This document shows positions 1,400 through 45,399 of a stretch of DNA of 64,000 nucleotides, piece after piece. The notes under the pieces were generated by a model. It worked only from the letters and a program-made list of their open reading frames with translations. It did no database searches and was not told where the DNA came from. Made by a program: the position numbers and the translations under genes. The DNA comes from an uncultured Acidobacteriota bacterium (lineage in GTDB: Bacteria > Acidobacteriota > Thermoanaerobaculia > Multivoradales > UBA5704): the NCBI GenBank assembly GCA_963770895.1, contig CAVYRF010000002.1, forward strand, positions 3,588,555 through 3,652,554, given 5' to 3'. Each line of letters starts with the position of its first letter. Position 1 is the stretch's first letter.

Positions 1400-2158
1400 T
1401 CAGGTCTCCAACACCTCGCCGGAAAGGTCGACCCGGCGGCGCAGGTTCTGGCGTCGCATGAATTGTCGGACGTAGTCAAGTGCGCGGCCGCGATAGGTGT
1501 CGTAAAGCGGGTTCCTGGTGGGCTCGTGGTGGACGGAGACGGCTTCCGTATAGCCCACGCGGATCTTGCCCAGATGAGTGTAGAAGTAGGCGAAGTGCTC
1601 GCCGATCTTCAGCGCCTCGTCCCAACGGTATCGACGGAGCACGCGAGCAGGCGCCAACAATTGGCTGGGCGCGAAGTCGACCAACCGCACCGGTCCCACC
1701 TCTCCGCGCGACGCCCGGTGGCATTCCACCACGCCATCGCTCACCGAGTACAATCCCCAGAAGCCGGTGCTGTCGTCGATCCCTAGAAGGTCGACCCGCG
1801 CCGCCTCGAGAAGCTCCTCTGCCCTGCGCAGGTCCGTGTCCTGACCGAAGAAGCAGTCGTCATCGCAGTTGAAGACGTAGTGCGTCTTCGCCAGGCGGAC
1901 GCCGTGATTGCGTCCTGCCGAAACGCCGACGTCGAAGCCGAGGTGAACGTAGAGCGTCGCAGGTTCGTGCGCGGAGCGCGCCAGGAGTGCGCGATTGGCC
2001 TCGCGGCTGTCGTCGACGACGACTACCGGGATCGCCGGGTAGCGCGCCCGGATGCTGGTGATCAGGCGATCGACCGCTTCCGGACGCTCGAAGGTTTTGA
2101 TCACGACGGTCGTTTGCCGCGGAGGTTCCATGAGCACAGTCTTGTTACCCAGGAGCAT
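1400..2158 (-). CDS. Family 2 (GT-A) glycosyltransferase
   Basis: Motifs 'VVIKTFERPEAVDRLITSI', 'PVVVVDDS' and the 'NCDDD' DxD motif are visible in the ORF. Protein is about 250 aa. An alternative start at MEPP (2131) is possible. Confidence 0.7.
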   Translation of the reverse strand: MLLGNKTVLMEPPRQTTVVIKTFERPEAVDRLITSIRARYPAIPVVVVDDSREANRALLARSAHEPATLYVHLGFDVGVSAGRNHGVRLAKTHYVFNCDDDCFFGQDTDLRRAEELLEAARVDLLGIDDSTGFWGLYSVSDGVVECHRASRGEVGPVRLVDFAPSQLLAPARVLRRYRWDEALKIGEHFAYFYTHLGKIRVGYTEAVSVHHEPTRNPLYDTYRGRALDYVRQFMRRQNLRRRVDLSGEVLET

Positions 2159-2199
2159 TCATGCGTCGAGCTGCTGGCATCGCGGGGTCTACCTGGTGC

Positions 2200-4008
2200 T
2201 CAACCGCTTGTGGGCTGACTCCGCGAGGGGGCATCGACCGCGGCTATTCGCCGCGCCGTGCCTCGACCCAGAAGGCGGAGCAGCCATGCGCGACAGCGCC
2301 AGGCTCGCGTGCCTTCCATGAACCGGACGCGGTCCTGCCAGCGTCCGAGCTCGTTGTGGAGCCGCTCGCGTTCGGCGGCGAGGAGATCGTTCGCCGTACG
2401 GAGTTTGGCTTCTGCCGCGGCCCGGTCTTCCTGCATCGCAACCAGCAGGTGCGGGAACCGCGATAGGTATAGCCGCTCATGCCTGCGGACGATGCACTCC
2501 TGGAGGGGCATGCTGAATTCCCTACGCTCGCACATCGAGACCATCGAATGAGGGCGCAAGCGATGATCGAAGCTCAGCACCGGCAGGTGACGGAATCCCC
2601 AGCCCTGCTCCGCGAGCGCAATCCAAAACTCCCAGTCCTCCCAGGCGGGGAGCTCGCGGGCGTAGCCCCCGCAACTCGACCAGGCCTCCTTTCTGAATAC
2701 CGCGCAGGAGGCCACGTAGTTGCCGCATAGCATTCGGTCGAGGTCGAAATCCGGGACCTTGATATCGGCGGACCGCAGGCCGAACGTGTGGCGATCACCG
2801 TAGACCACCCCGAGGCGAGGCTCCTCATCGAGAAGCGCCACCGCCGCCTCGACGAAATGCCCACGCAGGCGGTCATCGGCGTCCAGGGTCAGGATGTAGG
2901 GCCCCTGGGCGCGGGCGATGCCCGCATTGCGGGCCTGCGACAGACCGACGCCCACTTCGTCCAGGATGTCGTAGCCAGCCTGTCGCAACCGACCCAGGAC
3001 CTCGAGGGTTCGCGGCTGCCGAGAGCCGTCGTTGACGACAATGATCTCGCTGGTGGGCGCCGCGGCCTTCACGCTTGCGACGGCCTCGACGAGCAGCTCG
3101 CCGTGGTCGCGGCAGGGGATGACCACCGATACGCGCGGCGAGGCCGGTTTCGGCCGTGTCCGGGCTGAGCGCCGCTCGCGCACCAGGCCGGTCACCGGCA
3201 GATCGGCAGCCTCCTGCAGCTCGCCGTACAGGCCGAAAGCCTCGGGGCTGGTGGCCGCGACCAGATCGATCAGGGGGTGATCCAGAGGGTGGGCGCGCAG
3301 TCCCTCGTCTCCACGCAGGCGGGCAGGCAAATCGAGCTCCAGCGGAAGCCCGAACCGTGCAGCCAGGAGGTCGGTGAACCTGCGCGGCTCGGACAGCACG
3401 GCTTCGATCGAAATGAGGAGCGAGCGCTCTGCGTGGCGGCGACGAAAGTCCAGCAACCGGCGATTGTAGAAAGTCCAGATGCGGTAGCCATACTCCGGAT
3501 TGCTCAGAAAGACGTCGGCACCGATCCGCTGCATGGCGTCGGCCACATCCCAGGGTGCCCGGTAGACAAGCAGATAGCCAGGCGCGAGCCCGGCGTCCTT
3601 GGCCAGATCGTCCCAGAAGTCGAGCACCAGCGTCGTGCGCGGATCCTTCCACCCCCAGCGGCATCCATCGTCGTGGGCCATCAGCAGCTCGCGTGCCGAA
3701 TCCTTCACAGCGGCTGCAGGGCCAACGTCCCACGCCTCGGTCTCCGTCCAACCCCAGTCCCGATGTCCGGCCGCGGCCTCTGTGCAGGAGAGCATCAGCT
3801 GCCGGTTGACGGCGAGGAACTCCTGGTCCTCGAAATAGCCGCGCGGATTGTTGGCATCGGCCGCGACGAGCCGCGTCCCCATCGCGACACCGCCAGCGGC
3901 GAGGATCGAGGCCAGGTAAGACGTGCCGGAACGATGCATTCCAGCCACGACGATCGGCGAAACATGGGGGGTTCCTGCGGTGGTGGAGCCTGAGGTCCGC
4001 TCCTTCAT
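2200..4008 (-). CDS. Bifunctional sulfotransferase (N-terminal) and GT2 glycosyltransferase (C-terminal) fusion with a C-terminal coiled coil
   Basis: N-terminal 'GMHRSGTSYLASIL' resembles a PAPS-binding P-loop (5'-PSB). The central region has 'VSVVIPCRDHGELL...EIIVVNDGS...LTLDADD', a GT2 core with a DxD motif. The C-terminus is heptad-rich. Confidence 0.65.
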   Translation of the reverse strand: MKERTSGSTTAGTPHVSPIVVAGMHRSGTSYLASILAAGGVAMGTRLVAADANNPRGYFEDQEFLAVNRQLMLSCTEAAAGHRDWGWTETEAWDVGPAAAVKDSARELLMAHDDGCRWGWKDPRTTLVLDFWDDLAKDAGLAPGYLLVYRAPWDVADAMQRIGADVFLSNPEYGYRIWTFYNRRLLDFRRRHAERSLLISIEAVLSEPRRFTDLLAARFGLPLELDLPARLRGDEGLRAHPLDHPLIDLVAATSPEAFGLYGELQEAADLPVTGLVRERRSARTRPKPASPRVSVVIPCRDHGELLVEAVASVKAAAPTSEIIVVNDGSRQPRTLEVLGRLRQAGYDILDEVGVGLSQARNAGIARAQGPYILTLDADDRLRGHFVEAAVALLDEEPRLGVVYGDRHTFGLRSADIKVPDFDLDRMLCGNYVASCAVFRKEAWSSCGGYARELPAWEDWEFWIALAEQGWGFRHLPVLSFDHRLRPHSMVSMCERREFSMPLQECIVRRHERLYLSRFPHLLVAMQEDRAAAEAKLRTANDLLAAERERLHNELGRWQDRVRFMEGTRAWRCRAWLLRLLGRGTARRIAAVDAPSRSQPTSG

Positions 4009-6706: not shown

Positions 6707-6709
6707 GTT

Positions 6710-7588: not shown

Positions 7589-7616
7589 GGGCGTTCGCCG
7601 CGCGGGTGTGCGACGG

Positions 7617-11201: not shown

Positions 11202-11334
11202 GTATTCCGCTTCAGAGCTGCAGACGCCGGAATTAGCAAACGCGCGGGCGTGGCGCTCGACCGCTGTCGGGAATGTACTCAGCGGCCGGCGCCCTCATCG
11301 TCCGAGGTTCCTTGCTGACCTGCCGGAGGTGATA

Positions 11335-16903: not shown

Positions 16904-16923
16904 AGGCGTACCGTGAGCCTGCG

Positions 16924-23058: not shown

Positions 23059-23388
23059 TCAGGCGCCGGTTGAATTGGCAGGTGGCCGCGGCGGCTCGGC
23101 TTGCGCCACCGTTGGCGGAGCCGGCGGGGGCGCCCAGGCGGCGGGCTGGGCCTGCGCCACGGGCGGAGCCTGCACATAGGGCTGGGCCACAGGTGGCGCA
23201 ATCTGACCGGTGGCCTGCTGCGCCGGGTTGGATTCCGCCTTGTGACCGCCTCCCAGAGCGTCCCTGAAATCGCGGATCGAGGTCCCCAGCCCCTTGCCCA
23301 GCTCCGGCAGGCGCTTCGGGCCGAAGAACAGCAGGGCCAGGCCCAGGATGATGAGCAGGTGCATGGGTTGGAACAGTCCTTCGAACAT
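23059..23388 (-). CDS. tatA: Twin-arginine translocase subunit TatA/E
   Basis: 'MFEGLFQPMHLLIILGLALLFFGPKRLPELGKGLGTSIRDFRDAL' is the canonical TatA TM helix plus amphipathic helix. Pro/Ala-rich tail. Protein is 109 aa. Confidence 0.85.
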   Translation of the reverse strand: MFEGLFQPMHLLIILGLALLFFGPKRLPELGKGLGTSIRDFRDALGGGHKAESNPAQQATGQIAPPVAQPYVQAPPVAQAQPAAWAPPPAPPTVAQAEPPRPPANSTGA

Positions 23389-28297: not shown

Positions 28298-28300
28298 GGC

Positions 28301-31265: not shown

Positions 31266-31277
31266 GGCGGCTCCGCG

Positions 31278-32096: not shown

Positions 32097-34669
32097 CGCG
32101 GGGTCTCCTTCTGGACGGCGGGGGTGGCGGGTGCGAAGCCGGCGGCGAGCCGGTCGTAGAGCGGCAGGTGCGCGGCCAGGCCGCGGCTTTCCAGCCAGGC
32201 GCGCGGCCAGCCGGCGCCGTGGCTTTCGATCAGCTGGCGCGCCTGGGCGATCGCCTCGGGCAGGGTCATGCCCTCGGGGGTGCCGACGAAGGCGAGCGCC
32301 GCCGGGCCCAGGCCCAGCTCGAACAGGCGCGAGCCGCGCGGGCTCTTGAAGTAGTAATCGCGCTTGCGGCGGGCGTGGGCGATGAGGTGGATCTCGGCGT
32401 CGTTGAGGCCCAGGTCCAGGTAAAGGGCGCGGTGGCCGGGCGCGGCGGCCTCGGGGTTGGCCAGCAGGATGCGGGTGGGGCAGCTCTCCAGCAGCACGTG
32501 CCGCGACGGGCTGTCCCACAGCTGCGACAGGCTCTGCGTCGCCAGCACCACGGCGGCGTTCTGCTTGCGCAGGGTGAGCAGCCACTGCTTGATGCGCGCC
32601 GCGAAGGCGCTTTTCATCAGCGGCAGCCAGGCTTCCTCGATCACCAGCAGCGACGGCCGCCCCTGCTCCAGGCGCTGTTCGACGCGATGGAAGAGATAGA
32701 GCAGGACCGGCAGCAGCACGCGGTCGTCCATGTCCACCAGGCGCTTGAGCTCGAAGACCTGGTAGGGGCCGCCGTCTTCCAGGTCGTCTCTCCCGGCGTC
32801 GAGCAGGTGGGCCAGGTTGCCTTCGGCATAGGGGGCCAGAGCGGCCGCCAGCTCGCGCTCCTGCAGCTGCGGCACCAGCTCGGACAGGCGCCGGTGCTGC
32901 CGCGGCTCGGTCGACAGCAGCGCCAGCGCCGCGGCCAGGGCCTGGCGCGCCGGCGGCGTCACCGCGACGCCGTTGACCGCCAGCACACCCTCCAGCCACT
33001 CCAGCGCCCACAGCCGTTCGCCGCGGCGGTCGATGGCGGCGAGCGGTTGCAGCGCCACCGGCTCGTTGACCAGGTCGTAGTGCCGGGCGCCGGCGGCGCG
33101 CGCCAGCAGCCACCCCGAGTAGCCGACGTCGAAGCTGAACGCCTGCGCCCGCGGGTAGCGCAGGAACTGCGCCAGCAGCAGGTTGAGCAGCGTGCTCTTG
33201 CCGGCGCCGGTGCCGCCGACGACCAGGGTGTGGCCGACGTCGTCGTCGTGCAGGTTGAGCCAGAACGGGGTGGCGCCGGTGGTCGCCGCCCACAGCAGCG
33301 CCGGGCTGCGGCGCGGGAACAGCGGCGACGGGTTGTGCGGCAGGCCGGGCCAGACGCTGGTGACCGGCAGCAGGTCGGCCAGGTTGCGGCTCGACACCAG
33401 CGGCCGCCGCAGGTTGGCCCAGCCGTGGCCGGGGAGGCTGCCGCGCAGCGCCTCCAGGGCGTTGACGTCTTCGACGCGGGCGGTGAAGCCGCGGTCGTTG
33501 AGCGCCTTGACCACTTCGGCGGCGTTCTGGTCGGCGCGCGCCGCGTCGCGCTCGGCGACCAGCACCACCGGCGTGTACAGGCAGAAGCGGACGCGGCCGG
33601 AGGCGTTGTCCGCCGCCGCCAGCGCCGCGTCGCGCGCCATGGCGCCGGCGTCCTGATCCAGGAACAGCTCGTCGTCGCGCTCGCGTGCGGCGCTGGGCGC
33701 GGCGCCGTCGCCCACCGTCAGCTCGCGCAGCCAGGAGGCGGCGCCGCGGCGCTTTTTGAACCAGCCCAGGCGGACGCGGGCGATGTGGCGCGCCGCGACG
33801 GCCTGCGACAGCGGGATGATGCGGTGGGAGGCGCGGAAGGCGAAGCCCAGGCCGCCCAGGAAGTCCAGGATGCCGGAGAACGATTCGTGTGGGAAACCGT
33901 GGATGGCGACGATGCGCACCGCCAGGTCGCCCACCCGCGGCATCCAGCCGCCGGCGACCGGCTGGTCGGCGAGCAGCCCGTCCAGCCAGGCGCCGTGGGC
34001 CGGCGCCTTGACCGGGTGGTCGAGGCCGGTCAGGCAGGCGTGCAGGTGGGTGAGCAACTCGTCCGAGCCCAGGCGCACCACCTTGAGATGGGTGGACAGG
34101 CGCCGTTCGAGCTGCGCCGCCTCCGACTGGAAGGTGTCGTGCAGCTCGCTCCAGGCCCGCAGGCCGCCGCCCTGGCGGCCGCGCACGAAGAGGGCCGCCA
34201 GGCGCGAATACAGCTCGCGCGGCGGCAGGTAGGTGGCGGCCAGCACGCTGTCGCTGACGAAGTGGCCTCCCGCCGTCTCGTAGGCGGCGCGCCGCTCGGC
34301 GTCGAGCAGCGCGGTGACCGGGTCGGGGAAGGCCCCCGGCGGCGCATAGCCGAGCGCCGGGCGGCGGCGAAAATCGACGTGGAACATCCAGCCGTCGCCG
34401 TAGGGGAGCAGGGCGTCGTGCAGCTGGGCCGCCAGCGCCTCGAGCTCGGCGGCGGTGGCGGCCGCCAGGTCGGGGCCGCGGTAGCTCCAGGCGGTGAGCA
34501 GCGAGCCGTTCTTTTGCAGCACGGTGCCCGGCGCCACCAGGTGCAGCCAGCCGAGCAGGTCGCACAGGCCGCGCGGCTCGCGCCGGTGCTCGCGCAGGCG
34601 GTCGAGCAGCTGCGCGGCGGCGCCGCCGGCCACCAGGGTCAGCGCGGTTGTGATCGGCGTCAGGCTCAT
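32093..34669 (-). CDS. trbE: Conjugal transfer ATPase TrbE (VirB4 family)
   Basis: Real start at MSLTPITT (34669). VirB4 Walker A 'VVGGTGAGKSTLLNLL'. Walker B / DE region 'LLVIEEAWLPL'. Conserved C-terminal 'ATQSLSQL'. Length about 858 aa. Confidence 0.9.
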   Translation of the reverse strand: MSLTPITTALTLVAGGAAAQLLDRLREHRREPRGLCDLLGWLHLVAPGTVLQKNGSLLTAWSYRGPDLAAATAAELEALAAQLHDALLPYGDGWMFHVDFRRRPALGYAPPGAFPDPVTALLDAERRAAYETAGGHFVSDSVLAATYLPPRELYSRLAALFVRGRQGGGLRAWSELHDTFQSEAAQLERRLSTHLKVVRLGSDELLTHLHACLTGLDHPVKAPAHGAWLDGLLADQPVAGGWMPRVGDLAVRIVAIHGFPHESFSGILDFLGGLGFAFRASHRIIPLSQAVAARHIARVRLGWFKKRRGAASWLRELTVGDGAAPSAARERDDELFLDQDAGAMARDAALAAADNASGRVRFCLYTPVVLVAERDAARADQNAAEVVKALNDRGFTARVEDVNALEALRGSLPGHGWANLRRPLVSSRNLADLLPVTSVWPGLPHNPSPLFPRRSPALLWAATTGATPFWLNLHDDDVGHTLVVGGTGAGKSTLLNLLLAQFLRYPRAQAFSFDVGYSGWLLARAAGARHYDLVNEPVALQPLAAIDRRGERLWALEWLEGVLAVNGVAVTPPARQALAAALALLSTEPRQHRRLSELVPQLQERELAAALAPYAEGNLAHLLDAGRDDLEDGGPYQVFELKRLVDMDDRVLLPVLLYLFHRVEQRLEQGRPSLLVIEEAWLPLMKSAFAARIKQWLLTLRKQNAAVVLATQSLSQLWDSPSRHVLLESCPTRILLANPEAAAPGHRALYLDLGLNDAEIHLIAHARRKRDYYFKSPRGSRLFELGLGPAALAFVGTPEGMTLPEAIAQARQLIESHGAGWPRAWLESRGLAAHLPLYDRLAAGFAPATPAVQKETPR

Positions 34670-35001
34670 GGCGTCGTCGGCAGCGCCGGGTCGGGAGGCG
34701 CGGGCGGCGCGTGGAGCGGCGCGCCGGCGGCGTAGAAGTCGGCGCCGCGCAGGCTGCGCACGTAGAGGTCGGCGACGCGCGGGTCCTTGGCGCACAGGAA
34801 GACGGCCAGGGGGTGGAAGACCAGGGCGTAGAACAGGGCGAGCGCCAGGGTGAGCAGGTGCGGCCCGGCTTCGAACAGCAGCAGGAACACCGCCGCCGCC
34901 TCGAACAGCAGGAACTGCGGCGCGACGCCGGCGTAGAGCACCGGCCGCCACAGCGAGGCGTGCAGGCGCGTCTTGGCCGGGGTGGTGGGCGTCGAGGTCA
35001 T
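34666..35001 (-). CDS. trbD: Conjugal transfer protein TrbD (VirB3 family)
   Basis: 111-aa protein starting at MTSTPTT. 'LHASLWRPVLYAGVAPQFLLFEAAAVFLLLF' is the characteristic VirB3/TrbD hairpin TM region. ATGA overlap with trbE. Confidence 0.7.
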   Translation of the reverse strand: MTSTPTTPAKTRLHASLWRPVLYAGVAPQFLLFEAAAVFLLLFEAGPHLLTLALALFYALVFHPLAVFLCAKDPRVADLYVRSLRGADFYAAGAPLHAPPAPPDPALPTTP

Positions 35002-35023
35002 CGCGCTGGTCTCCGCCGTCTGG

Positions 35024-35386
35024 CTACAGCAGCGCGCCCTGGAAGCCGAGCGCATCCACCAGGTTGACCGCGCCGAGCACGATGGCGACGCCGAACAGCG
35101 CCTGGCCGAAGCGCTTGGCGCCCTGCTCGTGGCTGGTGAACGCCCACATGGCGCCGCCCAGCACGAACGCCAGCGCGGCAATGGTCTTGGCGGTGGGACC
35201 GGTCAGGTTGTCCACCACCACCTGCAGCGGGTGGTTCCAGGGCAGGTCGGCGCCGCCGGTGCCGGCGACCGCCGGGCGGGTGGCGACCGCCGCCGCGGTG
35301 AGGGCGGCGGCCAGCCAGGCGCCGACGCGGCGGGTGACGGCGGTGGTGGCGGTGGCGGGTCTGGCAGGACGGAGCGGTGGGCGCAT
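35024..35386 (-). CDS. trbC: Conjugal pilin precursor TrbC (VirB2 family)
   Basis: 120 aa. Long signal/leader, then two hydrophobic helices ('KTIAALAFVLGGAMWAF', 'ALFGVAIVLGAVNLVDALGF') typical of VirB2/TrbC pilins. Confidence 0.75.
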   Translation of the reverse strand: MRPPLRPARPATATTAVTRRVGAWLAAALTAAAVATRPAVAGTGGADLPWNHPLQVVVDNLTGPTAKTIAALAFVLGGAMWAFTSHEQGAKRFGQALFGVAIVLGAVNLVDALGFQGALL

Positions 35387-35459
35387 GACGGGGTTTCCTC
35401 CGGGGTGGGGTCCAAGGCGGCCGTGGCAGCTGGGCGGTGGTTGGGGAGCGGTGGCGGGC

Positions 35460-36443
35460 TCACTCCGCGGGCAGCGAGCGCAGGCGGTAGGCGGCGCCGT
35501 CGTAGCCGCCGACCGCGGCCACCTCGGTGACGCGGCGCCCCTGGCTGCCGCCGGCGATCATCACCACCATCTGGACGGCGGCGCCGACCAGGTGCGGCTG
35601 CGGGCCGACGCGGTTGCGCTGTGCCAGGCGGTCCAGGCGGTCGAGCGCCGCCAGCGGGTCGTCGGCATGGAGGGTGGCGCAGCCGCCGGGGTGTCCGGTC
35701 TGCCAGGCGTCGCACAGGTCGAGCGCGGCTTCGTCGCGCACCTCGCCGACCACGATGCGGTCGGGCGAGGTGCGCAGCGCCGCCTTCACCAGGTCCTTGA
35801 GCTTGAGCGCTTCGGTGGTGCGCAGCGCCAGGCAGTCGGCGGCCGAACAGCGCAGCTCCACCGTGTCCTCCAGGATGACGATGCGCGCGCGCGGCGCCTG
35901 GCGGGTGATCTCCAGCAGGATGGCGTTGCACAGCGTCGTCTTGCCGCTGCCGGTGCCGCCCGCCACCAGCACGTTGCGGCGCGCCGCCACCGCGTCGACG
36001 ATCGCCGCGTGGTGGCGCCGGGCGAGCACGCCGGCCGTGACGTAGTGATCCAGGCTGTACACCACCGCCGGCGGCTTGCGCAGGTTGAAGCTGGGAGCGG
36101 CGACGAGCGGCGGCACGAACCCCTGCAGCCGCGCGCCCAGGAAGGTCGCGGCCGGCAGCTCCGCTTGCAGCTGCGGCCGCGCCGCATTGATCACGGTGCC
36201 CAGGCCGCTGGCCACGATGTTGAGGAACCGCTGCACCTGGCTGGCGGTGAGCGCCGTGCCGCTGTCGCGGCGGCCGCGGGCGCGGCTGTCGAGGAACAGC
36301 CGGCCGCCCGGATTGACGTAGATCTCGGTCACGTCGGGGTCGGCCATGGCAGCCATCACCGCCGGCCCCACCGCCCGCGCCAGGGCGTCGCAATGGCGGC
36401 GTCCGGGGTCCATGCCGCCTGTCTCCGCGTCGTGCTCGGCCAT
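35460..36443 (-). CDS. trbB: Conjugal transfer ATPase TrbB (VirB11 family)
   Basis: Walker A 'VAGGTGSGKTTLCNAIL'. Asp box 'RIVILEDTVEL'. His box 'GHPGGCATLHADDP'. ATG at 36443 preceded by an AAGGAGG RBS. Confidence 0.9.
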   Translation of the reverse strand: MAEHDAETGGMDPGRRHCDALARAVGPAVMAAMADPDVTEIYVNPGGRLFLDSRARGRRDSGTALTASQVQRFLNIVASGLGTVINAARPQLQAELPAATFLGARLQGFVPPLVAAPSFNLRKPPAVVYSLDHYVTAGVLARRHHAAIVDAVAARRNVLVAGGTGSGKTTLCNAILLEITRQAPRARIVILEDTVELRCSAADCLALRTTEALKLKDLVKAALRTSPDRIVVGEVRDEAALDLCDAWQTGHPGGCATLHADDPLAALDRLDRLAQRNRVGPQPHLVGAAVQMVVMIAGGSQGRRVTEVAAVGGYDGAAYRLRSLPAE

Positions 36444-36601: not shown

Positions 36602-36790
36602 GGGTCAGCTCAGGGGGGCGGCCGAGCCGTGGGAGGAGCGGATGAGCTCAGGGGGAGGCCGCCGAGCCGCCGAAGGAGCGGGTCAGCTCAGGGGAGGCCG
36701 CCGAGCCGCCGGAGGAGCGGGTCAGCTCAGGGGAGGCCGCCGAGCCGCGGGAGCAGCGGGTCAGCTCAGGGCAGATAGCCGAGCGCGCGC
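36602..36790. repeat. Tandem repeat array, ~39-40 bp unit, ~4.8 copies, between the sulfatase-like gene 3' end and the trbB promoter
   Basis: Units 'GGTCAGCTCAGGGGAGGCCGCCGAGCCGCCGGAGGAGCG' recur at 36602, 36641, 36681, 36720 and 36759. The last partial unit contains the sulfatase stop codon and final codons (…GYLP*). The array therefore looks generated by reiterated duplication of the gene's 3' end. Confidence 0.8.
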
Positions 36791-38094
36791 AGGCGGGCGC
36801 GCTCTTCGTCGCCGACCATCGCGGCGGGGCCGCTGGTGGTGGGCATTTCCGCCACCAGGGTGTGCAGGCGCTGGTTGAGCGCCGCCGCCAGGTCGCGGTG
36901 CTGGGCCGCCACGTCGCGGTGTTCGCCGGGGTCGGCGGCCAGGTCGTAGAGGTGCCCGTCGTACAGCTTCCAGGGGGCCAGGCGGATCGACACCCCCGGG
37001 TCCGAATCCATGTGGCTGACGGCGAACCGCGGCAGGGCGGCGCGGCCCTGGGCGAGCGGCTCCAGGTCGCTGCCGCGGAACTGCCGCGGCTGCGGCCAGC
37101 CCATGGCGGCGACCAGGGTGGGGGCGATGTCGATCTGCCGCACCTGCGAGGTGACCGTTTCGCCGGCGTAGCGGCCGTCCGGGAACTTGATCAGCAGCGG
37201 CACCCGCAGCAGCTCGTCGTAGAGCGTATGGGAGTGCCAGCCGACCGAGCCGTGCTCGGCGAACTCTTCGCCGTGGTCGGAGGTGAAGACGATCAGCGCG
37301 CCGTCGTAGCGGCCGGTCCGCTTGAGGAAGTCGACCAGGTTGCCGAACCCTTCGTCCATCGAGCGGATCTCGCCGTCGTAGGTGGCGACGATGTGCTCCA
37401 GGTCGCGCGGCCCGATGTGCAGCCGTCGGGTGCGGATGGCGAGCAGCGTCGGCATGTCCGTCTGCCCGGCCGGCAGCGGTCCGTGATAGGGCTCCGGCTC
37501 CTCCATCGCCAGGTAGCGCGGCGACGGCGTGTACGGATGGTGGACTTCGTAGGTGTGCAGAAACAGGAAGCGCGGCGCCGCCGGCGGGTGGGAGCCGAGC
37601 CAGCGCGTCGCCAGCGCCACGACGTCGGTGAAGTGATAGATGCCGGCGGGGGGAGACGAGCTGTACAGGTCGAAGCCGTGGTCGATGCCGTAGGCGGCGG
37701 CGATCTGGCCGCCGTCGTTCCACGACAGCGTCTGAAAGCCGTGCTGGCGGAAGATCGAGGCGATGGTCTGGAAGCGCGGCGACAGCGCGTGGTTGATGCG
37801 ATGCTCGGCGCCGTGCTGCTGCGGCAGCAGCGACGTCATGATCGAAGCGTGCGACACCAGGGTCGAAGAGCCCGCGGCGATCGCCTGCTGGAACAGCACG
37901 GCATCCTGGCGGAAACGATCGATGTGCGGGGTTGTCGGCCGGCTGTAGCCGTAGCAGCCCAGGTGGTCGGCGCGCAGGGTGTCGATCGACACCAGGATGA
38001 CGTCGCGCGGCAGGTCGACCGCGCCGGCGGCGCCCACGTCGTGCGCCCGCACCCGGCCCGGCAGCAGGCCGGCGGCCAGCGCCACCGCCGCCAC
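36766..38094 (-). CDS. Sulfatase-like hydrolase/transferase (alkaline-phosphatase superfamily), secreted
   Basis: 'VILVSIDTLRADHLGCYGYSRPTTPHIDRF' is the PF00884-type N-terminal metal-binding motif. C-terminal 'FTSDHGEEFAEHG' is also present. No clear C/S-x-P-x-R formylglycine motif can be seen. Signal peptide present. Confidence 0.7.
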   Translation of the reverse strand: MAAVALAAGLLPGRVRAHDVGAAGAVDLPRDVILVSIDTLRADHLGCYGYSRPTTPHIDRFRQDAVLFQQAIAAGSSTLVSHASIMTSLLPQQHGAEHRINHALSPRFQTIASIFRQHGFQTLSWNDGGQIAAAYGIDHGFDLYSSSPPAGIYHFTDVVALATRWLGSHPPAAPRFLFLHTYEVHHPYTPSPRYLAMEEPEPYHGPLPAGQTDMPTLLAIRTRRLHIGPRDLEHIVATYDGEIRSMDEGFGNLVDFLKRTGRYDGALIVFTSDHGEEFAEHGSVGWHSHTLYDELLRVPLLIKFPDGRYAGETVTSQVRQIDIAPTLVAAMGWPQPRQFRGSDLEPLAQGRAALPRFAVSHMDSDPGVSIRLAPWKLYDGHLYDLAADPGEHRDVAAQHRDLAAALNQRLHTLVAEMPTTSGPAAMVGDEERARLRALGYLP

Positions 38095-38135
38095 GGCCCC
38101 CAGCGTCGTCCAGGCGAACGGCTGCCAGCGGGCGC

Positions 38136-41100
38136 TCAGACCTTCTCCCAGATCAGCACCTGGGCGGGGAGCCCGAGGGCCGCCGTGGCGTCCAGCTGGC
38201 CGGCCGGGCGCAGCGCGGGGTGCCGGGGCGGCGCGGGGTGCGGCTGGCCGCCGTCGGCGACGGCGGTGGTGGCGGTCGAGGGAGCGGCGGTCACCAGCAG
38301 GAAGAGGCCGCCGCGCGCCAGTCTGCCGGCGGCGTTTTCGAGCAGGATCGGGTGGTCGCCGCCGGGTGTGAGATCGACGTGCAGCCAGGCGTCGCTGGGG
38401 AAGCGGCCGGCGCCCGGCAGGCCGCCGCCGCCGTCCGCCAGGCGGGAGCCCAGGTGGGCCGCCGCCGCCTGGTGCAGCTCGGCGGCGCGCGGGCTGTGCG
38501 CCGAAACCTCGACGGCGGCGGTGTTGGCGAGCGCGGGCAGCTGCTGGTCGAGCACCGCCAGCAGGCGAGTGAGCGCTTCGGGAGTGCAGCCCGCGCCGGC
38601 GGCGCCGTTGGCGGGATGGGCGCCATTGGCGCGATGGGCGCCATGGGCGCCGTTGTCCTGGCGCGGGGCGGCCGCCGCGCGATCGCGCGGCAACCGCTGC
38701 TCGACCGCCAGCAGGCTGCGGGAGTGCCCGGCCAGGCCCTGCTCGGCGGCGTCCTGCCGCACTGCCAGGCCGGCCAGCCGCGCGGTCAGCGTGTTCTGCC
38801 GGGTGGTCACGTCGTGCAGCGCCGCCAGCAGGTCCTGGCGCTCGGCGTTCATGTCGAGCAGCCGCGCCAGCTCCGCCTCCAGCGCGCCCAGGGAGGCGAT
38901 CCGGGCGTCGAGCGCCGCGCCGGCGGCGTCGCGTGCCGCGTTGGCGGCGTCGCGTGCCGCGTCGGCGCCGATGCGTGCCGCCGCCTGCGCGTCGATCAGG
39001 GCGCGCAGCAGGTCGTGCTCGCGGTCCCAGGCGACCCCCAGGTCGCGAACGCGGCGGATGGCGCGGCGCAGGAATCGCCAGGCCCGCGCCGGGGCCGGTC
39101 CGCTGGCGGGAGCGCTCAGGCTGCTGCGGCGGCGCACCGCGTCCCAGCGCTCCAGCGCCCCGGCCAGGTCTGATGGCGACGGGGCGGCCGCGGCATCGGC
39201 GGGCGCTGCCGGCGCCGTTTGCGTGGTCGGAGCCGTGGGCGTCGCGTCTGCCGTGGGCGCGGTTGCCGGGGGCGTCGCTGCACCGGCAAGGGCGCCGCGC
39301 AGGCGCTCGCCTGCCGCCGCGGCGGCGCGCGCCACGTCCTGCCGCAGGTCTGCCGCCGGGCGCGCCCAGGAGTTGTCGGTCGCCGGATAGGCGGGCGTCT
39401 TGCGCAGCGCCAGGTGCACCGAGCAGAACACCTGGCCCTGGTGCGACAGCACCAGGTGCGGCAGCCGGCGCTCGCCGTGGCCGATCTGGCGCGCCGCCTC
39501 CAGCAGCTCCCGCGAGGTGGCCAGCGTGGCGGCGGACACCGCCGGCACCAGGTCGTCCACCGGTTCGAGGCCGCTTGCCTGGACGATGTGGCGGCGCAGG
39601 CCGGCAGCGTCGAACAGCTGCACGTCCTGCCAGCCGGAGGCTCCCGGCGGGCCGGCGATCAGGAACTCCGTCGACAGCACGGCGACCCCGCCCGGCGCCA
39701 GCACGCGGCCGATCTCATAGGCCGCGGCGGCCACGTCGGCAAGGCCGCCGAAGTGCTCGATGGAGCCGCTGGCGAAGACGCCGGCGAAGGTGTCGTCCGG
39801 GAAGTCGAGCACCCGTCCGTCCATGTGCTGCACCGTGAGCTTCCACGATTCGAAGGGATAGGGGCACAGCTCCTGCGGGCGCGTCAGCATCAGGGTCGAC
39901 GCTTCCTGCCATTGGCCGGGACCCAGGTAGAGGTCGGTGGCGATGACCCGCGCGACGTGGCGGGTGAGGTAAAAGCAGGTCAGCTCGCTGCCCGCGCCGA
40001 CGCCCAGCAGCGTCGCATCCGGCCGCAGGGCGCCGTAGCGGCGCAGGGCGCGGACGCTCATCGCGATCTCCCAATGCTTGCGGTCTTCGGTGCCGGCGGG
40101 GAAGTCCGCACCGCGCACCGCCGCTTCGTGGGGGAAGATGTCGCGGATCAACGCCGCCAGCTCAGGGTCGCGGAAGTCCTCGATCGCGCAGACCTTGTTG
40201 TGGGCCAGGCCGCCACCCTCGCCGGCATCGGCGCCGGCATCGGCAGCGGGATCGGCGCCGGCGCCGGTGGCGGCCGCCTCCGGTGGCAGCTGGTGGGCCG
40301 GCCGCTCGGTCAGCTCTTCGATCACGGCGCGGTAATGGTCCGCCATCTGCTGCAAGGTGCCATGCGCAAGATGATACTCGCGTGCGGCGCGTCCCGCCGC
40401 GGCCGCGTGGCCGGGATCGGCGGCCAGGCCGGCCAGCCAGCCGGCGAGGTGGACGGCTTCCTGGTCATCGGGCTTGATACGGTAGCAGAACCGCGCCGGC
40501 AGGTGGTCCCAATCGGCCACGTCGGTGACCGCCACCGGCCGGCCCGCGGCGATGGCGCGCAGGAGCGTCGCCGACATCTGCTTGCGGAAGGGAAAGCGCA
40601 GGTTGACCACCGCGTCGCAGGCCAGCAGCAGCCGGTAGAAGTCGCCCTTCGCCACCTGTTCGAACAGGCGCAGGCGGGAGGCGATGCCCAGGTCGCGCGC
40701 CACCTCCTTGAGGCGGATGCGGTAGGCGGGGCGCGAAAAGCGGCCGACGACGATCAGCATGGCGCCGGGCACCTGGGGGGCGATGCGCGCCACCGCCTGC
40801 AGCGCGGCTTCGATGCGCTTGACCGGATCGGCGATGCCGAAGGTACCCACGATGAAGGCGTCCGCCGGCAGGTTGTAGAACCGGCGCAGGGAAGCCGCGT
40901 CGCCGGCGGGATGGCTGATGCGCGGGTCTTCCACCCCCATCGGGAAGCTGAAGACCCGCGCCCGCGGATAGCGCTCTTCGATCTCCTGCGCGGCGCGCGG
41001 CAGGTGGACGATCTGGGCCAGGCTGGCGTCGATCAGTGAGCGCAGCATGTAGTGCCGGCCCAGGAACTCTTCGCTGGCGCGGGTGCGGTCGGCGGGGTCG

Positions 41101-42854
41101 GTGCGCGACAGGGCGTCCCAGGCTTCGCGGGCCTGGCGCCCCTCCGCCACCTCGATCTCGCGGCCGATCTGGTCCACCGGCCAACCGGCGGCGAACAGGT
41201 CGAGGTGCACGTACCCCAGGGTCAGGTCGTGCAGCACCAGCACGCCGGGCCAGCGGCGGATGGCCTCCAGCATGAAGACGTGGAACATGGAGGCGCCCAG
41301 CTGGTAGATCACGGCGTCGAACGGCTGGCGCCGCCGGCGGCGCTCGAAGGCGGTGTAGTGGAAGACCGGCCAGGCGGTGACCAGCTCCTGGTCCGGCAGG
41401 TAGCCGTCGTCGACGAACAGCTCCAGGTCCGCCGCCGGCGCCAGCGCGCCCAGCAGCTCGGCGGTGTAGTCGGAGATGCCGCTGGCGATCGGCGGCAGCG
41501 GTCCCCAGAATGCCAGGCGCAGGCGGCGCGGCGGCGCCGGTTGCCGCCCGCGCGGCGGCAGGGGGCGGGGGGGGCGCGCCGCGTCGTCGTCAGCGATGGC
41601 CTGCCGGTAGCTTTGCAGCGTGGCCTCACCCAGGCGGCGCGGCGTGAAGCCGGCGGCGCGCGCCAGGCCGGCGGCGCGCAGATCGCGGCGCAAGCCGGGG
41701 TCGCCGTCGAGCTGGGCGAAGGCGCGGGCGAAGCTGGCCGGGTCTTCGGGGTCGACCAGCAGGCCGGCCTGGCCCACCACTTCCGCCGGCGCCCCGGCGC
41801 CGGCGGCGATGACCGGCGCGCCGCAGCGCATCGCCTCGAGCGCCGGCATGCCGAAGCCTTCGTAGCGCGACGGCAGCACGAAGAAATGGCAGGCGTTGTA
41901 GAGCGCCGCCAGCTCGCGGTCGGCGACGAAGCCGGGGACGATGGTCTGGTCCCGAATGCCCAGGTCGAGCAGCCAGCGCTCGACGACATGGCGCCCGGCC
42001 AGGTCGAAGTCGCCGACCACCACCAGCGGGTGGCGGCGGCGCCACGGCTCCGGCATCGCGGCGAAGGCGCGCAAGAGCGTCAGCGCGTTCTTGGCGTGGT
42101 GGAGGTGGGTGAGCGACAGCACGAAGTCTTCGGGCAGCGGCACGCGGTGCCGGAGGTCCGTCAGGGCGGCCGCCACGGCCGGCGCGTCGAGCGGCCGGAA
42201 CCAGGGTTCGGCGATCGGGTAGGCGACGTCGATGCGCCGGCGGTCGATGCCCAGCTGGTCGGCGGCTTCGTCGCGCGCAAAGCTGGAGATGGCCAGCAGG
42301 CGGTCGGCGAAGCGCAGCGCCCGCGTCGTGCGCAGGTAGCGCGCCAGCTCCGCGCCGCGAAAGTAGCGGTCGCGGTAGATCAGCGGGATCAGGTCGTAGT
42401 GCGTCGCGACCAGGGCGCAGCTGTCGCAGCGCCAGAAGGCAGGCTCCGCGTTCTGAAACGGCGTCGTGGCATGGAAGAGGTCCAGCCCCAGGTCGGCAAG
42501 CAGCCCTGAAAGGGCGGCGGCATGGCGCAACAGGTCGCGCTCGGCGTGAGGCTCGCCCTGGCCGGTCAAACCGGGTGGCAGGCTCGCCCGCGAGACGTTG
42601 GGCGCGGCGGCGATCTCGGGCAGCAGCAGCTCGGGATCGCCGTCGGGCGCCAGCAGCAGCACGAACTGGTGCTGCCGCGCCTCCGGCAGGCGCAGGACTT
42701 CGCGCAGCTGCTGCTGGGTGAAGCGCCCCATGCCGCGGTCGACCGTGGCGCGGCCGCCGGACAGCATGCGGAAATCGACCCCGAATCGCATGTCCAGGTC
42801 AGCGGCGGACGAGGCTCGCGAAGCCAGCGGCGACTTGTGACATTGAAGCCACAA
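38136..42854 (-). CDS. 1572-aa multidomain enzyme: two GT4-family glycosyltransferase domains, a class I SAM-dependent methyltransferase domain, a coiled coil, and a C-terminal MTase-like tail
   Basis: GT4 E-x7-E regions 'FVLPSRYEGFGMPALEAMRCGAPVIA', and a second GT-B domain 'LRLAFWGPLPPIASGISDYT...'. MTase motif I 'LLGVGAGSELTCFYL' and post-I/II motifs 'FASGSIEHF', 'LAPGGVAVLSTEF'. Heptad-rich 'ARIGADAARDAANAARDAAGAALDARIASLGALEAELARLLDMNAERQDLLAAL'. Confidence 0.7.
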   Translation of the reverse strand: MWLQCHKSPLASRASSAADLDMRFGVDFRMLSGGRATVDRGMGRFTQQQLREVLRLPEARQHQFVLLLAPDGDPELLLPEIAAAPNVSRASLPPGLTGQGEPHAERDLLRHAAALSGLLADLGLDLFHATTPFQNAEPAFWRCDSCALVATHYDLIPLIYRDRYFRGAELARYLRTTRALRFADRLLAISSFARDEAADQLGIDRRRIDVAYPIAEPWFRPLDAPAVAAALTDLRHRVPLPEDFVLSLTHLHHAKNALTLLRAFAAMPEPWRRRHPLVVVGDFDLAGRHVVERWLLDLGIRDQTIVPGFVADRELAALYNACHFFVLPSRYEGFGMPALEAMRCGAPVIAAGAGAPAEVVGQAGLLVDPEDPASFARAFAQLDGDPGLRRDLRAAGLARAAGFTPRRLGEATLQSYRQAIADDDAARPPRPLPPRGRQPAPPRRLRLAFWGPLPPIASGISDYTAELLGALAPAADLELFVDDGYLPDQELVTAWPVFHYTAFERRRRRQPFDAVIYQLGASMFHVFMLEAIRRWPGVLVLHDLTLGYVHLDLFAAGWPVDQIGREIEVAEGRQAREAWDALSRTDPADRTRASEEFLGRHYMLRSLIDASLAQIVHLPRAAQEIEERYPRARVFSFPMGVEDPRISHPAGDAASLRRFYNLPADAFIVGTFGIADPVKRIEAALQAVARIAPQVPGAMLIVVGRFSRPAYRIRLKEVARDLGIASRLRLFEQVAKGDFYRLLLACDAVVNLRFPFRKQMSATLLRAIAAGRPVAVTDVADWDHLPARFCYRIKPDDQEAVHLAGWLAGLAADPGHAAAAGRAAREYHLAHGTLQQMADHYRAVIEELTERPAHQLPPEAAATGAGADPAADAGADAGEGGGLAHNKVCAIEDFRDPELAALIRDIFPHEAAVRGADFPAGTEDRKHWEIAMSVRALRRYGALRPDATLLGVGAGSELTCFYLTRHVARVIATDLYLGPGQWQEASTLMLTRPQELCPYPFESWKLTVQHMDGRVLDFPDDTFAGVFASGSIEHFGGLADVAAAAYEIGRVLAPGGVAVLSTEFLIAGPPGASGWQDVQLFDAAGLRRHIVQASGLEPVDDLVPAVSAATLATSRELLEAARQIGHGERRLPHLVLSHQGQVFCSVHLALRKTPAYPATDNSWARPAADLRQDVARAAAAAGERLRGALAGAATPPATAPTADATPTAPTTQTAPAAPADAAAAPSPSDLAGALERWDAVRRRSSLSAPASGPAPARAWRFLRRAIRRVRDLGVAWDREHDLLRALIDAQAAARIGADAARDAANAARDAAGAALDARIASLGALEAELARLLDMNAERQDLLAALHDVTTRQNTLTARLAGLAVRQDAAEQGLAGHSRSLLAVEQRLPRDRAAAAPRQDNGAHGAHRANGAHPANGAAGAGCTPEALTRLLAVLDQQLPALANTAAVEVSAHSPRAAELHQAAAAHLGSRLADGGGGLPGAGRFPSDAWLHVDLTPGGDHPILLENAAGRLARGGLFLLVTAAPSTATTAVADGGQPHPAPPRHPALRPAGQLDATAALGLPAQVLIWEKV

Positions 42855-43047: not shown

Positions 43048-43980
43048 ATGAGATCTGAACGGCTCCGAGTGCTCGGGTTGACTCTGCTCCTGCTGCTGAC
43101 TTTGACGACGCTTGCCCATGCGCAGGCGACGCGGACCTGGGTGTCTGGGGTGGGCGACGACGCCAACCCGTGCAGCCGCACGGCCCCCTGCAAGACGTTC
43201 GCCGGCGCCATCTCCAAGACCGCCGCCGGCGGTGAGATCAACGTGCTGGATCCGGGCGGATTCGGCGCCTTGACCATCACCAAGGCGATTTCGATCGAGG
43301 CTGACGGACTGATCGCCGGCGTGCTGGTGTCGGGCACCAACGGCTTCGTCATCGCGGCCGGGGCGACCGACACGGTGACGCTGCGCGGCCTGACGTTCGA
43401 GGGCATCGGCACCGGCCTGAACGGGGTCTCGATCCTGTCGGCAGGCAACGTGCTCATCGATCACTGCTATATCAACGGTTTCACCAACGAGGGCATCAAC
43501 ATCGCGCCCGCCGCGCCGGCGACCGCCACCAACGTGACGATCCAGGACACCACGATCAAGGGCACCACGGGCGCCGTCCCCAACGGCTACGGCATCTACG
43601 TCAAACCCGCCGCGGGCACGACCGCCAACGTGACGATCAATCGCGTCACGGCCAACACCAACCAGGCCGGCGCCCTGCGCCTGGAAGGCAGCGCCAGCAA
43701 GGCGACGGTGCGCGACAGCAATTTCTCGCTCAACACCGCCGGCAACGCCGTGGTGGCCAATACCAGCTCGACGATCAGCATGGACAACACGCTGATCGCG
43801 GGCAACGCCAACGGCATTGTCGCCAGCAACTCCGGCACCGTGCGGATCAGCAACATTTCGCTCTTCGACAACACCAACAACGCCATCAACGCGACGGGCG
43901 GCACGGTGCTGTCGTTCGAGAACAACCGCATCGTCGGCACCATCACCGGCGGCCCGATCTCGACCCAGGCCCAGCAGTAG
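43048..43980 (+). CDS. Secreted right-handed parallel beta-helix repeat protein (pectate-lyase-fold-like)
   Basis: ATG at 43048 with an AAGGAGGG RBS. Signal peptide 'LGLTLLLLLTLTTLAHAQA'. Periodic '...NVTI.D.TI.G..' and 'N.G..' rungs typical of beta-helix proteins. Confidence 0.6.
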   Translation: MRSERLRVLGLTLLLLLTLTTLAHAQATRTWVSGVGDDANPCSRTAPCKTFAGAISKTAAGGEINVLDPGGFGALTITKAISIEADGLIAGVLVSGTNGFVIAAGATDTVTLRGLTFEGIGTGLNGVSILSAGNVLIDHCYINGFTNEGINIAPAAPATATNVTIQDTTIKGTTGAVPNGYGIYVKPAAGTTANVTINRVTANTNQAGALRLEGSASKATVRDSNFSLNTAGNAVVANTSSTISMDNTLIAGNANGIVASNSGTVRISNISLFDNTNNAINATGGTVLSFENNRIVGTITGGPISTQAQQ

Positions 43981-44025: not shown

Positions 44026-45399
44026 ATGACGCAAACGGCTTTGGATGGCGGACCGGCGCGCGCCACGGCGCCGGTCCGTGGCCGCATGTTGCTCGACATG
44101 GGCGGCTACCAGTGGGCGGTGCTATTTGCCGCCTGGCTGGGGTGGGGTTTCGACTGCTTCGACAGCCTGCTGTTCAACTTTGTCGCTCCCAATTGCGTGC
44201 CGACGCTGCTCGGCCTGCCGCTGGGGTCGCCGGCAGCCAAGTCGGCGACGCTGCTGTGGACCGGGATCTTCACCTCGCTGCTGCTGCTGGGGTGGGCGGC
44301 GGGCGGCATCCTGATGGGGCACGTGGCGGACCGCATCGGCCGCAGCCGGACGCTGCTGCTGACCATGCTGATCTATTCGCTCGGCACCGCCGCCTGCGCC
44401 CTGGCGCCCAACCTGTGGGTGCTGGGGCTGTGCCGGATGGTGTCCAGCCTGGGCATCGGCGGTGAATGGGCCGCCGGTGCGGCGATGGTCGCCGAGGTGG
44501 TGCCCGAAAAGCGCCGCGTCGAAGCCGGCGCGCTGCTGTACACCTCGGCGCCGCTGGGGCTGTTCCTGGCCAGCTTCACCAACCTGCAGATCGCCGGCAG
44601 GTTCTTCAAGTCCTCGCCGGAAGTTTCATGGCGCTACGTCTTCCTGGCCGGGCTGGCGCCGGCGGTCGTCGCCATCCTGGTGCGGGTGTTCGTGCGCGAG
44701 CCGGAGCGGTGGCGCCTGGTGGCGCAGCGCTCGGCGCGGCCGCGGCTGCGCGAGCTGTTCACGCCGGAGTACCGGCGGCTGACGCTCGCCGGCTGCCTGA
44801 TGGCGGGGGTGGCGCTGATCAGCTGGTGGAGCAGCAACGCCTTCATCCCGATCATCAGCGGCGGCCTGGCGACGGTCACGGCCAAGGCGCGCGCCCTGGA
44901 CCGCGTCGCCACGGTGGTGCTGGTCGAGCACTGGAAGTCGGCGGCGACCAACTACTTCAACGTCGGCGGCCTGCTGGGCACCCTGCTCACCGTGCCGGCG
45001 GCGAAGCTGCTCGGGCGGCGCCCGATGTTCGCCATCTATTACACCGGCGCGGGGCTGTCGATGCTCGCCGCCTACGGCCTGGACCTGGCGCCCGAAACGC
45101 GCCTGGCGATGTACTTTCTGATCGGTCTGACAGCCTTCGGCGTGCTGGGCAGCTTCACCTACTACCTGCCCGAGCTGTTCCCCACCCGCCTGCGGGGAAC
45201 CGGCGCCGGATTCACCTACAACGTCAGCCGCGTCGTCGCGGCCGCCGGGCCGCTGCTCATCGGCAGCATCGCGGCGCAGGGCGCCAACTCCCTGACGACC
45301 GCCCTGCGCGCGCTGTTCTATGTCGGGTTTGCGCCGCTTCTGGGCCTGGCTTTCCTGCCCCTCGCCATCGAAACCAAGGGCCGGCCGCTGGAGGATTGA
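44026..45399 (+). CDS. MFS transporter
   Basis: Twelve predicted TM helices. MFS motif A-like 'GHVADRIGRSRTLLLTM' between TM2 and TM3. 457 aa. Confidence 0.8.
   Translation: MTQTALDGGPARATAPVRGRMLLDMGGYQWAVLFAAWLGWGFDCFDSLLFNFVAPNCVPTLLGLPLGSPAAKSATLLWTGIFTSLLLLGWAAGGILMGHVADRIGRSRTLLLTMLIYSLGTAACALAPNLWVLGLCRMVSSLGIGGEWAAGAAMVAEVVPEKRRVEAGALLYTSAPLGLFLASFTNLQIAGRFFKSSPEVSWRYVFLAGLAPAVVAILVRVFVREPERWRLVAQRSARPRLRELFTPEYRRLTLAGCLMAGVALISWWSSNAFIPIISGGLATVTAKARALDRVATVVLVEHWKSAATNYFNVGGLLGTLLTVPAAKLLGRRPMFAIYYTGAGLSMLAAYGLDLAPETRLAMYFLIGLTAFGVLGSFTYYLPELFPTRLRGTGAGFTYNVSRVVAAAGPLLIGSIAAQGANSLTTALRALFYVGFAPLLGLAFLPLAIETKGRPLED

Follow-up and report, generated by a model that had tools for sequence, protein, structure and literature searches.

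What would a bacterium make with an enzyme that carries two glycosyltransferases, a methyltransferase and a long coiled coil on one polypeptide? This question is raised by a 64,000-nucleotide stretch of DNA (the window) from an uncultured Acidobacteriota bacterium (GTDB lineage Bacteria; Acidobacteriota; Thermoanaerobaculia; Multivoradales; UBA5704; NCBI GenBank assembly GCA_963770895.1, contig CAVYRF010000002.1, positions 3,588,555 to 3,652,554 of the forward strand), in which a single minus-strand gene encodes such a protein. The best explanation of its product is a soluble, cytoplasmic glycan-assembly enzyme of five modules, arranged as a GT4 glycosyltransferase (GT), a divergent GT of the GT-B class, a methyltransferase (MT), a coiled coil of about 20 nm and a C-terminal domain (CTD). 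On balance, and with modest confidence, this enzyme is regarded as a cytoplasmic polymerase joined to a methyl-terminator, of the ABC-transporter-dependent type represented by WbdA/WbdD, WbbB, O7 ORF6 and WsaE.

The window has a G+C content of about 72%, and long open reading frames (ORFs) are plentiful on both strands. Because spurious long ORFs overlap 38136..42854 on both strands, the composition by codon position is informative: G+C at positions 1/2/3 of this ORF is 0.79/0.53/0.92, the coding pattern of a genome with about 72% G+C. The maximal ORF (38136..42854, minus strand) has a stop-free translation of 1572 residues from a TTG codon, which is the length that the original prediction, made from the sequence alone, had assigned to the fusion. 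The single ORF is real, but the protein is probably shorter: all homologues start with MR[FI]G[IV]DFR, and the database copy of the protein, P0001, is identical and 1551 residues long, and the true coding sequence therefore most likely runs from an ATG as 38136..42791. No transmembrane helix is predicted in the protein, the maximal 19-residue Kyte-Doolittle mean being 1.44. A frameshift or assembly artefact could join separate genes into a fusion of this kind, and split forms of the family do exist; the probability of such an artefact is nevertheless negligible for practical purposes. A second, independent assembly of 6.5 kb carries the 1551-residue sequence identically to the 5.83-Mb contig, the same 442-residue sulfatase-like gene follows it in both, G+C at the third codon position is of coding type and uniform across the ORF, and the full architecture recurs in 31 homologues from many metagenomes and metagenome-assembled genomes (MAGs) at 32-62% identity. 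The features of the gene are as follows.

38136..42791, minus strand: most likely coding sequence of the multi-module protein, 1551 residues plus stop, ATG start, placed by homologue starts and P0001
41586..42791, minus strand: module 1, residues 1-402, a GT4 with intact EX7E motif (E311...E319), by Pfam Glyco_transf_4 and Glycos_transf_1
40293..41519, minus strand: module 2, residues 425-833, a divergent GT-B that passes Pfam gathering scores
39372..40154, minus strand: module 3, residues 880-1140, a class I S-adenosylmethionine (SAM)-dependent MT, by Methyltransf_11 and alignment
38694..39095, minus strand: coiled-coil stalk, residues 1233-1366, by its heptads and a single helix in AlphaFold2
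38904..38981, minus strand: tandem repeat of 21 nt (one heptad) in the coil, 3.7 copies, encoding GADAARD-AANAARD-AAGAALD
38601-38651, minus strand: in-frame 9/18-nt tandem repeat in a disordered linker, encoding NGAHGAHRANGAHPANGA
38139..38585, minus strand: CTD, residues 1403-1551, compact and alpha/beta, by AlphaFold2 and Foldseek

The predicted domains stood up to the profile search, in which the GT4, the second GT-B module and the class I MT were all recovered. Numbered from the TTG, Pfam places Glyco_transf_4 at 58-213, Glycos_transf_1 in two stretches (3.6e-41) and Methyltransf_11 at 950-1059 (1.1e-9; 39 bits, cut-off 21). In module 1, E311, G312, F313, G314 and E319 are invariant among 17 homologues. 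Module 2, scanned alone, scores 40.5 with Glyco_trans_1_4 (gathering score 27) and 35.4 with Glycos_transf_1 (gathering score 26.4), and is related to module 1 in the C-terminal Rossmann half (hhalign, 98.4%). Its motif reads ACDxVVNLR[FY]PxRKQMSATLxRAxAAGKPV, with Q738 and R745 at the positions of the EX7E glutamates; in the homologue alignment Q738 is invariant and R745 is present in at least 90% of sequences. Of the two GT4 catalytic domains originally proposed, two GT-B modules thus pass Pfam, but the second is without both EX7E glutamates. For comparison with WbdA and WbdD, the O9 cluster of E. coli HS was fetched. The family profile matches E. coli HS WbdA with an hhalign probability of 99.94% (E 3e-37) over 602 columns, residues 103-772 of the query aligning with 117-785 of WbdA; module 1 aligns with the N-terminal module and module 2 with the C-terminal module, whose glutamates are retained in WbdA. 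WbdA is a polymannose polymerase, and because this homology covers both modules, the GT core reads as a WbdA-like two-module polymerase.

A linker of some 45 residues connects module 3 to the GTs. The module has an intact glycine-rich motif, LGVGAGxE, and a conserved end, LRKTxxYPxxDNxWARP, and among solved structures its best match by profile is 6uv6 (4.9e-8), a D-glucose O-methyltransferase. The long heptad region noticed in the sequence was borne out: residues 1235-1367 form a proline-free stretch of 133 residues with heptad periodicity, and AlphaFold2, run on residues 1195-1551, models a single helix of 134 residues (1233-1366, pLDDT 87-97), followed by disorder at 1367-1398. A conserved neck (RWD...RVRDLG, residues 1207-1262) precedes the coil. 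The 21-nt tandem duplication in the coil is recent. The closest homologue, P0002, lacks the residues that match this repeat, and because the copies are missing there, the comparison points to duplication of heptads as the way in which the coil changes length.

The original inventory listed the GTs, the MT and the coil, all of which are present, and overlooked a fifth module, the CTD of about 150 residues, which is a previously undescribed end domain. It carries the conserved motifs FGxR and PNDxWxHxD, and no Pfam family matches it at E<=1. Searched against 1.84 billion representatives, its profile returned 97 clusters only, with the match nearly always C-terminal. Modelled alone with AlphaFold2 (pTM 0.81, pLDDT 84.7), the domain matches class I methyltransferases in the top 11 and in nearly all of the 50 PDB matches listed by Foldseek; these matches are weak (E ~2e-3, TM ~0.5), and a few of them come from the pseudo-MT regions of fatty-acid synthase. 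Five strands are present in the model, beta2 and beta3 being absent, and the beta1 loop reads AVEVSAHS, without GxGxG. Alignment of the CTD with the family's own MT domain gave no match (hhalign, 3.8%). Judged from this model, the CTD is probably a reduced, non-catalytic MT-like domain; a second active methyltransferase at this position was rejected on the missing SAM loop and the strand content.

Hidden Markov models were built for the five modules, and the 118 homologues returned were scored. The search for homologous fusions found the complete arrangement, GT-GT-MT-neck-CTD, in 31 of the 118, which together with the two assemblies settles that the fusion is genuine; a further 28 are GT-GT-GT, nine GT-GT-MT-neck, six GT-GT-MT and five GT-GT-neck-CTD, with others besides. 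Of the forms that this modular family takes, the full fusion is the commonest. The named relatives belong to the Thermoanaerobaculia, whose MAGs are the nearest of them, the Holophagales, the Acidimicrobiia and other Actinomycetota, with more distant ones in Bryobacterales and Paraburkholderia; the locus L025 is from the cultured Paraburkholderia ginsengisoli NBRC 100965. Stand-alone MT-coil-CTD proteins also occur, as complete internal genes (P0138, 681 residues; P0125, 619 residues, at 473-2332 of locus L060); P0138 has a separate 770-residue GT4-GT4 gene two genes downstream, and this pair is a split version of the window fusion. Some homologues carry a precomputed PF20706 label, a GT4 of anti-phage conflict systems. 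This reading was not supported for the window protein, which is without PF20706 at E<=0.01 and reaches only 16 bits in PADLOC. A literature search on Thermoanaerobaculia glycosyltransferases found nothing.

In ABC-transporter-dependent assembly, the prototypes are split, as in WbdD and WbdA, or fused, as in WbbB and K. pneumoniae O7 ORF6 (PMC11231755). In every characterised prototype the coil separates the terminator, at its far end, from the GT modules, and the C-terminal carbohydrate-binding module of Wzt recognises the terminal cap (PMC11231755). Multi-module proteins with coiled coils are a hallmark of such assembly, so that calling the architecture unusual in itself was an overstatement; placing polymerising GTs and an O-methyltransferase on one scaffold, as originally proposed, is a sound reading with precedents in WsaE (PMC2943079) and K. 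pneumoniae O7 ORF6 (PMC11231755). The window protein is an unusual rearrangement of a known surface-polysaccharide machine and not a new kind of system.

The closest of these likenesses is to the E. coli O9/O9a (K. pneumoniae O3) system, in which WbdA is homologous to the window protein across both GT modules. WbdD, a methyltransferase-kinase terminator, consists of an N-terminal catalytic module, a coiled coil and a C-terminal non-catalytic region, and the split relatives (MT-coil-CTD plus GT4-GT4) share the topology of WbdD and WbdA (PMC11231755, PMC3482155). The window protein differs from this pair in being a single polypeptide, in having no kinase domain in the Pfam scan, in lacking the EX7E that WbdA keeps in module 2, and in ending with a folded MT-like domain where WbdD has an amphipathic helix region. 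Homology to WbdD was looked for and not found: the family profile aligned with it at 4% hhalign probability, in low-complexity coil only, and no WbdD structure was returned among the PDB profile matches of module 3. Because the profile shows nothing beyond that coil, any likeness of the MT-coil part to WbdD is analogy at most. O7 ORF6 (MT-kinase-CBM-coiled coil-GT2-GT2) and O12 WbbB (GT99-coiled coil-GT-GT) likewise unite polymerising GTs with an extended coil and with a module that modifies or terminates, all in one polypeptide (PMC11231755), a likeness of shared domain classes only. Relative to them the module order of the window protein is reversed, its MT is not parted from the GTs by the coil, its GTs are GT4/GT-B and not GT2, and it has the extra pseudo-MT-like domain at the far end of the coil. 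WsaE of Geobacillus stearothermophilus, likened here by description, is a trifunctional protein of an MT and two rhamnosyltransferase domains encoded next to wzm/wzt, in which methylation caps the chain (PMC2943079); its MT is N-terminal, no coiled coil or CTD is reported for it, and its product is the S-layer protein glycan of a Gram-positive bacterium.

Linkage to exporters is found among the relatives. The homologue has both ABC-2 exporter genes no farther than 10 kb away in 16 loci (L004, L005, L009, L010, L012, L013, L015, L016, L022, L024-L027, L041, L044 and L051), with partial matches in several more, and the homologues so flanked are the more distant ones (32-48% identity). The Wzt ATPase carries Wzt_C (PF14524) in five of the five Acidimicrobiia/Actinomycetota loci scanned (L009, L010, L019, L024 and L044), where it adjoins GT-GT-MT homologues. 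The polymerase-plus-terminator reading is favoured because of the WbdA homology, this linkage to exporters and Wzt_C, and the existence of both split and fused forms. It is favoured also because the coil is of variable length, with 69-240 residues between neck and CTD across 38 homologues, and contains the duplication of one heptad.

The genes on either side of the multi-module gene are as follows.

36766..38094, minus strand: sulfatase-fold (alkaline-phosphatase superfamily) protein, 442 residues as called, PF00884 2.2e-48
37849..37863, minus strand: T-L-V-S-H at the C/S-x-P-x-R formylglycine position of this protein, residues 78-82, by alignment to solved sulfatases
43048..43980, plus strand: secreted right-handed beta-helix protein, 310 residues, clear signal peptide, Beta_helix 8.7e-18, NosD
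44026..45399, plus strand: MFS / Sugar_tr transporter, a syntenic neighbour

The sulfatase-like partner is adjacent and on the same strand, as predicted; its gene begins 41 nt downstream of the multi-module gene, and in L001, L002, L006 and L008, too, it directly follows that gene. The PF00884 match spans 300 of the profile's 301 positions, and 70 solved chains of the sulfatase family match at E<=1e-5. The suspicion that it lacks CxPxR was upheld by alignment: T-L-V-S-H aligns with S-G-P-S-R of solved sulfatases, and four orthologues retain its Thr and His (T-L-x-x-H). The protein thus shares the fold and the first metal-binding Asp with type I formylglycine sulfatases and departs from them in the C/S-x-P-x-R motif and in reading DT for the DD metal motif. 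A Thr nucleophile points to phosphoryl-transfer rather than sulfatase chemistry in the alkaline-phosphatase superfamily. Because T-L-V-S-H replaces C/S-x-P-x-R and the Thr and His are kept in orthologues, it is reasonable to read the partner as a putative phosphodiesterase or transferase rather than a sulfatase, as had been proposed, and the name sulfatase is probably a misnomer. It resembles Thr-nucleophile enzymes of the superfamily (NPP, EptA and LtaS types) in being of the Thr type; unlike EptA and LtaS, it has no N-terminal domain with multiple transmembrane segments. The called GTG start (38094) gives a signal peptide without a charged n-region, and the in-frame codons upstream of it (window 38094-38139, minus strand), LSARWQPFAWTTLGA, resemble the absent n-region; the only start candidate there is a CTG that overlaps the TGA stop of the multi-module gene. 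In L001, L002 and L008 the orthologue begins 8-26 nt past this stop; its n-region is Arg-rich and leads into a lipobox in L001 and L002 and into a hydrophobic stretch in L008. The true start may therefore lie upstream of 38094, possibly as far as 38139.

The closest relatives (58-62% identity) keep the downstream sulfatase-like gene, the divergent beta-helix gene and the MFS gene. The beta-helix gene is divergently transcribed; it adjoins the multi-module gene in L001, L002, L006, L007 and L011, and in L008 the two are no more than about 4.5 kb apart. No informative solved relative of its product was found. The MFS protein is 75% identical to its counterparts in L001 and L002 and belongs to a wider synteny block, and a functional link to the multi-module gene is uncertain. 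The L008 locus, from a Thermoanaerobaculia MAG, combines the multi-module gene with the sulfatase-like and beta-helix genes, an ABC-2 permease, a GT2-GT4 gene and three PMT_2-type GT-C genes, which surround the multi-module gene and its partner (7587-9233, 16699-18570 and 18670-20496) and hint that, in this locus, polyprenol-linked sugars serve as donors for glycosyl transfer in the periplasm.

Several observations weigh against a polymerase with a chain-terminating cap. The order in the window is GT-GT-MT-linker-coil-CTD, with the MT not at the coil's far end; across the coil there is only the reduced MT-like domain without a SAM loop, probably inactive. The linkers on both sides of the MT are flexible, and the one between MT and coil, 65 residues rich in Ala, Pro and Thr, argues against a rigid ruler. 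Neither the MT nor the coil has detectable sequence similarity to WbdD, and module 2 may not be catalytic, since its EX7E glutamates are replaced. Neither wzm nor wzt was found in the window, where the only ABC genes are those of the Liv-type importer and tblastn matched only its ATPases (4.1-5.6 kb); the flanks sequenced for the five closest relatives (L001, L002, L006, L007 and L011, leaving aside the downstream flank of L007 and L011) hold neither gene, and no priming transferase or nucleotide-sugar genes were seen near the multi-module gene. In the Thermoanaerobaculia/Holophagales loci that do have an exporter (L004, L005, L012, L013 and L016), Wzt is short and has no cap-binding module. 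Much of this feeds the main rival, a synthase that methylates every repeat unit and is possibly not exported, perhaps comparable to the enzymes behind the mycobacterial methylmannose and methylglucose polysaccharides, in which the coil would only oligomerise the protein and no ABC exporter would take part. Such a synthase would suit a soluble protein whose MT is tethered directly to the GTs on the same side of the coil and has a sugar O-methyltransferase as its best solved relative, as well as the missing exporter genes and the short Wzt of the nearest exporter-linked loci. It is set against family members that stand repeatedly beside Wzm/Wzt, five of them with Wzt_C, and against an operon partner and a divergent neighbour that are both exported, which points to an extracytoplasmic product. 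This rival is considered unlikely.

Two further possibilities concern what the glycan is attached to and how its length is set. The glycan might be linked to protein, for example to the adjacent beta-helix protein, in the manner of S-layer glycan synthesis by WsaE (PMC2943079). The conservation of the secreted beta-helix protein beside the gene and the three PMT_2-type genes of L008 would fit this, but neither an oligosaccharyltransferase nor a GT-C gene lies near the gene in the window, and beta-helix proteins of the CASH/NosD type in polysaccharide loci are more often glycan-modifying; attachment to protein is accordingly judged improbable. It is rather doubtful, though less so, that the polymerase and MT form a catalytic head on a coil of variable length, with the pseudo-MT CTD docking or sensing length, and that Thermoanaerobaculia use the Thr-type sulfatase-fold enzyme and the beta-helix protein instead of a linked Wzm/Wzt.

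Under the favoured polymerase-plus-terminator reading, the protein would use nucleotide sugars to polymerise a lipid-linked glycan on the cytoplasmic side of the membrane, and the MT would O-methylate that glycan, most likely capping its non-reducing end and so terminating the chain. The coil would oligomerise the protein and space the catalytic head from a membrane, exporter or partner bound by the CTD, the latter taking a docking role as the counterpart of the C-terminal anchoring or recruitment region of WbdD. After export, the co-transcribed, putatively periplasmic Thr-nucleophile enzyme of the sulfatase fold may process the glycan by phosphodiester chemistry and not by desulfation, and the secreted beta-helix protein would perhaps also act on the exported product.

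The original prediction had extended this pathway to a sulfotransferase-GT2 fusion at 2.2-4.0 kb. The distant genes that bear on this extension, and the type IV secretion cluster, are listed here.

1400..2158, minus strand: second GT2, 252 residues, adjoining 2200..4008
2200..4008, minus strand: sulfotransferase-like and GT2 fusion, 602 residues, GT2 3.7e-21, Sulfotransfer_3 26.3 bits against a cut-off of 27
4117-8960: Liv-type branched-chain amino-acid ABC importer, beside the sulfotransferase-GT2 gene
23710-25617, minus strand: DUF11/IPTL-CTERM protein gene, adjacent to the Trb cluster
26552-36443, minus strand: Trb-type type IV secretion cluster, immediately downstream of the sulfatase-like gene
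26552-28297, minus strand: trbI
28301-29479, minus strand: CagX/trbG
29476-31803, minus strand: VirB8 domain within this interval
30249-31265, minus strand: trbL
32093-34951, minus strand: trbE/VirB4
35460-36443, minus strand: trbB-like ATPase

The fusion at 2200..4008 holds for its GT2 part, while its Sulfotransfer_3 match is near the threshold. That this gene, the multi-module gene and the sulfatase-like gene form a single pathway to a surface glycan bearing both methyl and sulfate groups is very improbable. A near-threshold sulfotransferase beside a GT2, the second GT2 at 1400..2158, and the CysNC/CysD sulfate-activation genes that lie some 4-6 kb off in the distant homologue locus L005 would speak for it. 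The two loci are, however, separated by 34 kb of unrelated genes (the Liv-type transporter, two giant secreted proteins and the type IV secretion cluster), relatives have no counterpart of the sulfotransferase-GT2 gene in their sequenced flanks, and the partner, being without the formylglycine motif, is no evidence of sulfate chemistry. Nothing in the analysis indicates sulfation, and that part of the earlier proposal is left without support, as is the shared pathway. The interval 1400-4008 may be a small, separate glycan locus.

The Trb cluster and the DUF11/IPTL-CTERM gene fill the site between the sulfatase-like gene and tatA (23161-23388), with a G+C content of 0.75-0.79 in the cluster region and no tRNA gene in the window to mark an insertion. 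Because relatives carry four other genes at this site, including BBP2/Aq_1264_TM, and synteny resumes at tatA, the cluster looks like a lineage-specific insertion that is irrelevant to the multi-module gene; a functional link to type IV secretion was rejected on the same grounds. The two giant proteins lie on the plus strand, one at 11185-15978 (1597 residues, with three CBM96 and four glucodextranase-B-like domains) and one at 16924-20970 (1348 residues, with LVIVD, bacterial TSP3, Big_7 and CarboxypepD_reg repeats). On the minus strand, 59167-62022 encodes 951 residues in which an N-terminal PIG-L domain (GlcNAc-PI de-N-acetylase family) is the only recognisable one, with some 750 residues besides.

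What makes this locus interesting is the altered arrangement of its modules, a CTD not described before and an odd partner of the sulfatase fold. For annotation, the conserved Thr-type partner is flagged as a gene whose sulfatase label is probably wrong, and the distant sulfotransferase gene should be kept separate from the multi-module locus. Coiled-coil molecular rulers are the current model of chain-length control, which rests on few enterobacterial prototypes. The family described here, from uncultured Acidobacteriota and from Actinomycetota, keeps the WbdA-like polymerase, the MT and the coil while its wiring differs, a CTD is added, and fused and split forms coexist; it thus offers a natural test of whether separation of terminator and polymerase is essential to the ruler. 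If the architecture with a docking pseudo-MT is true, it would represent a logic of chain length and export different from the ruler of WbdD and WbbB.

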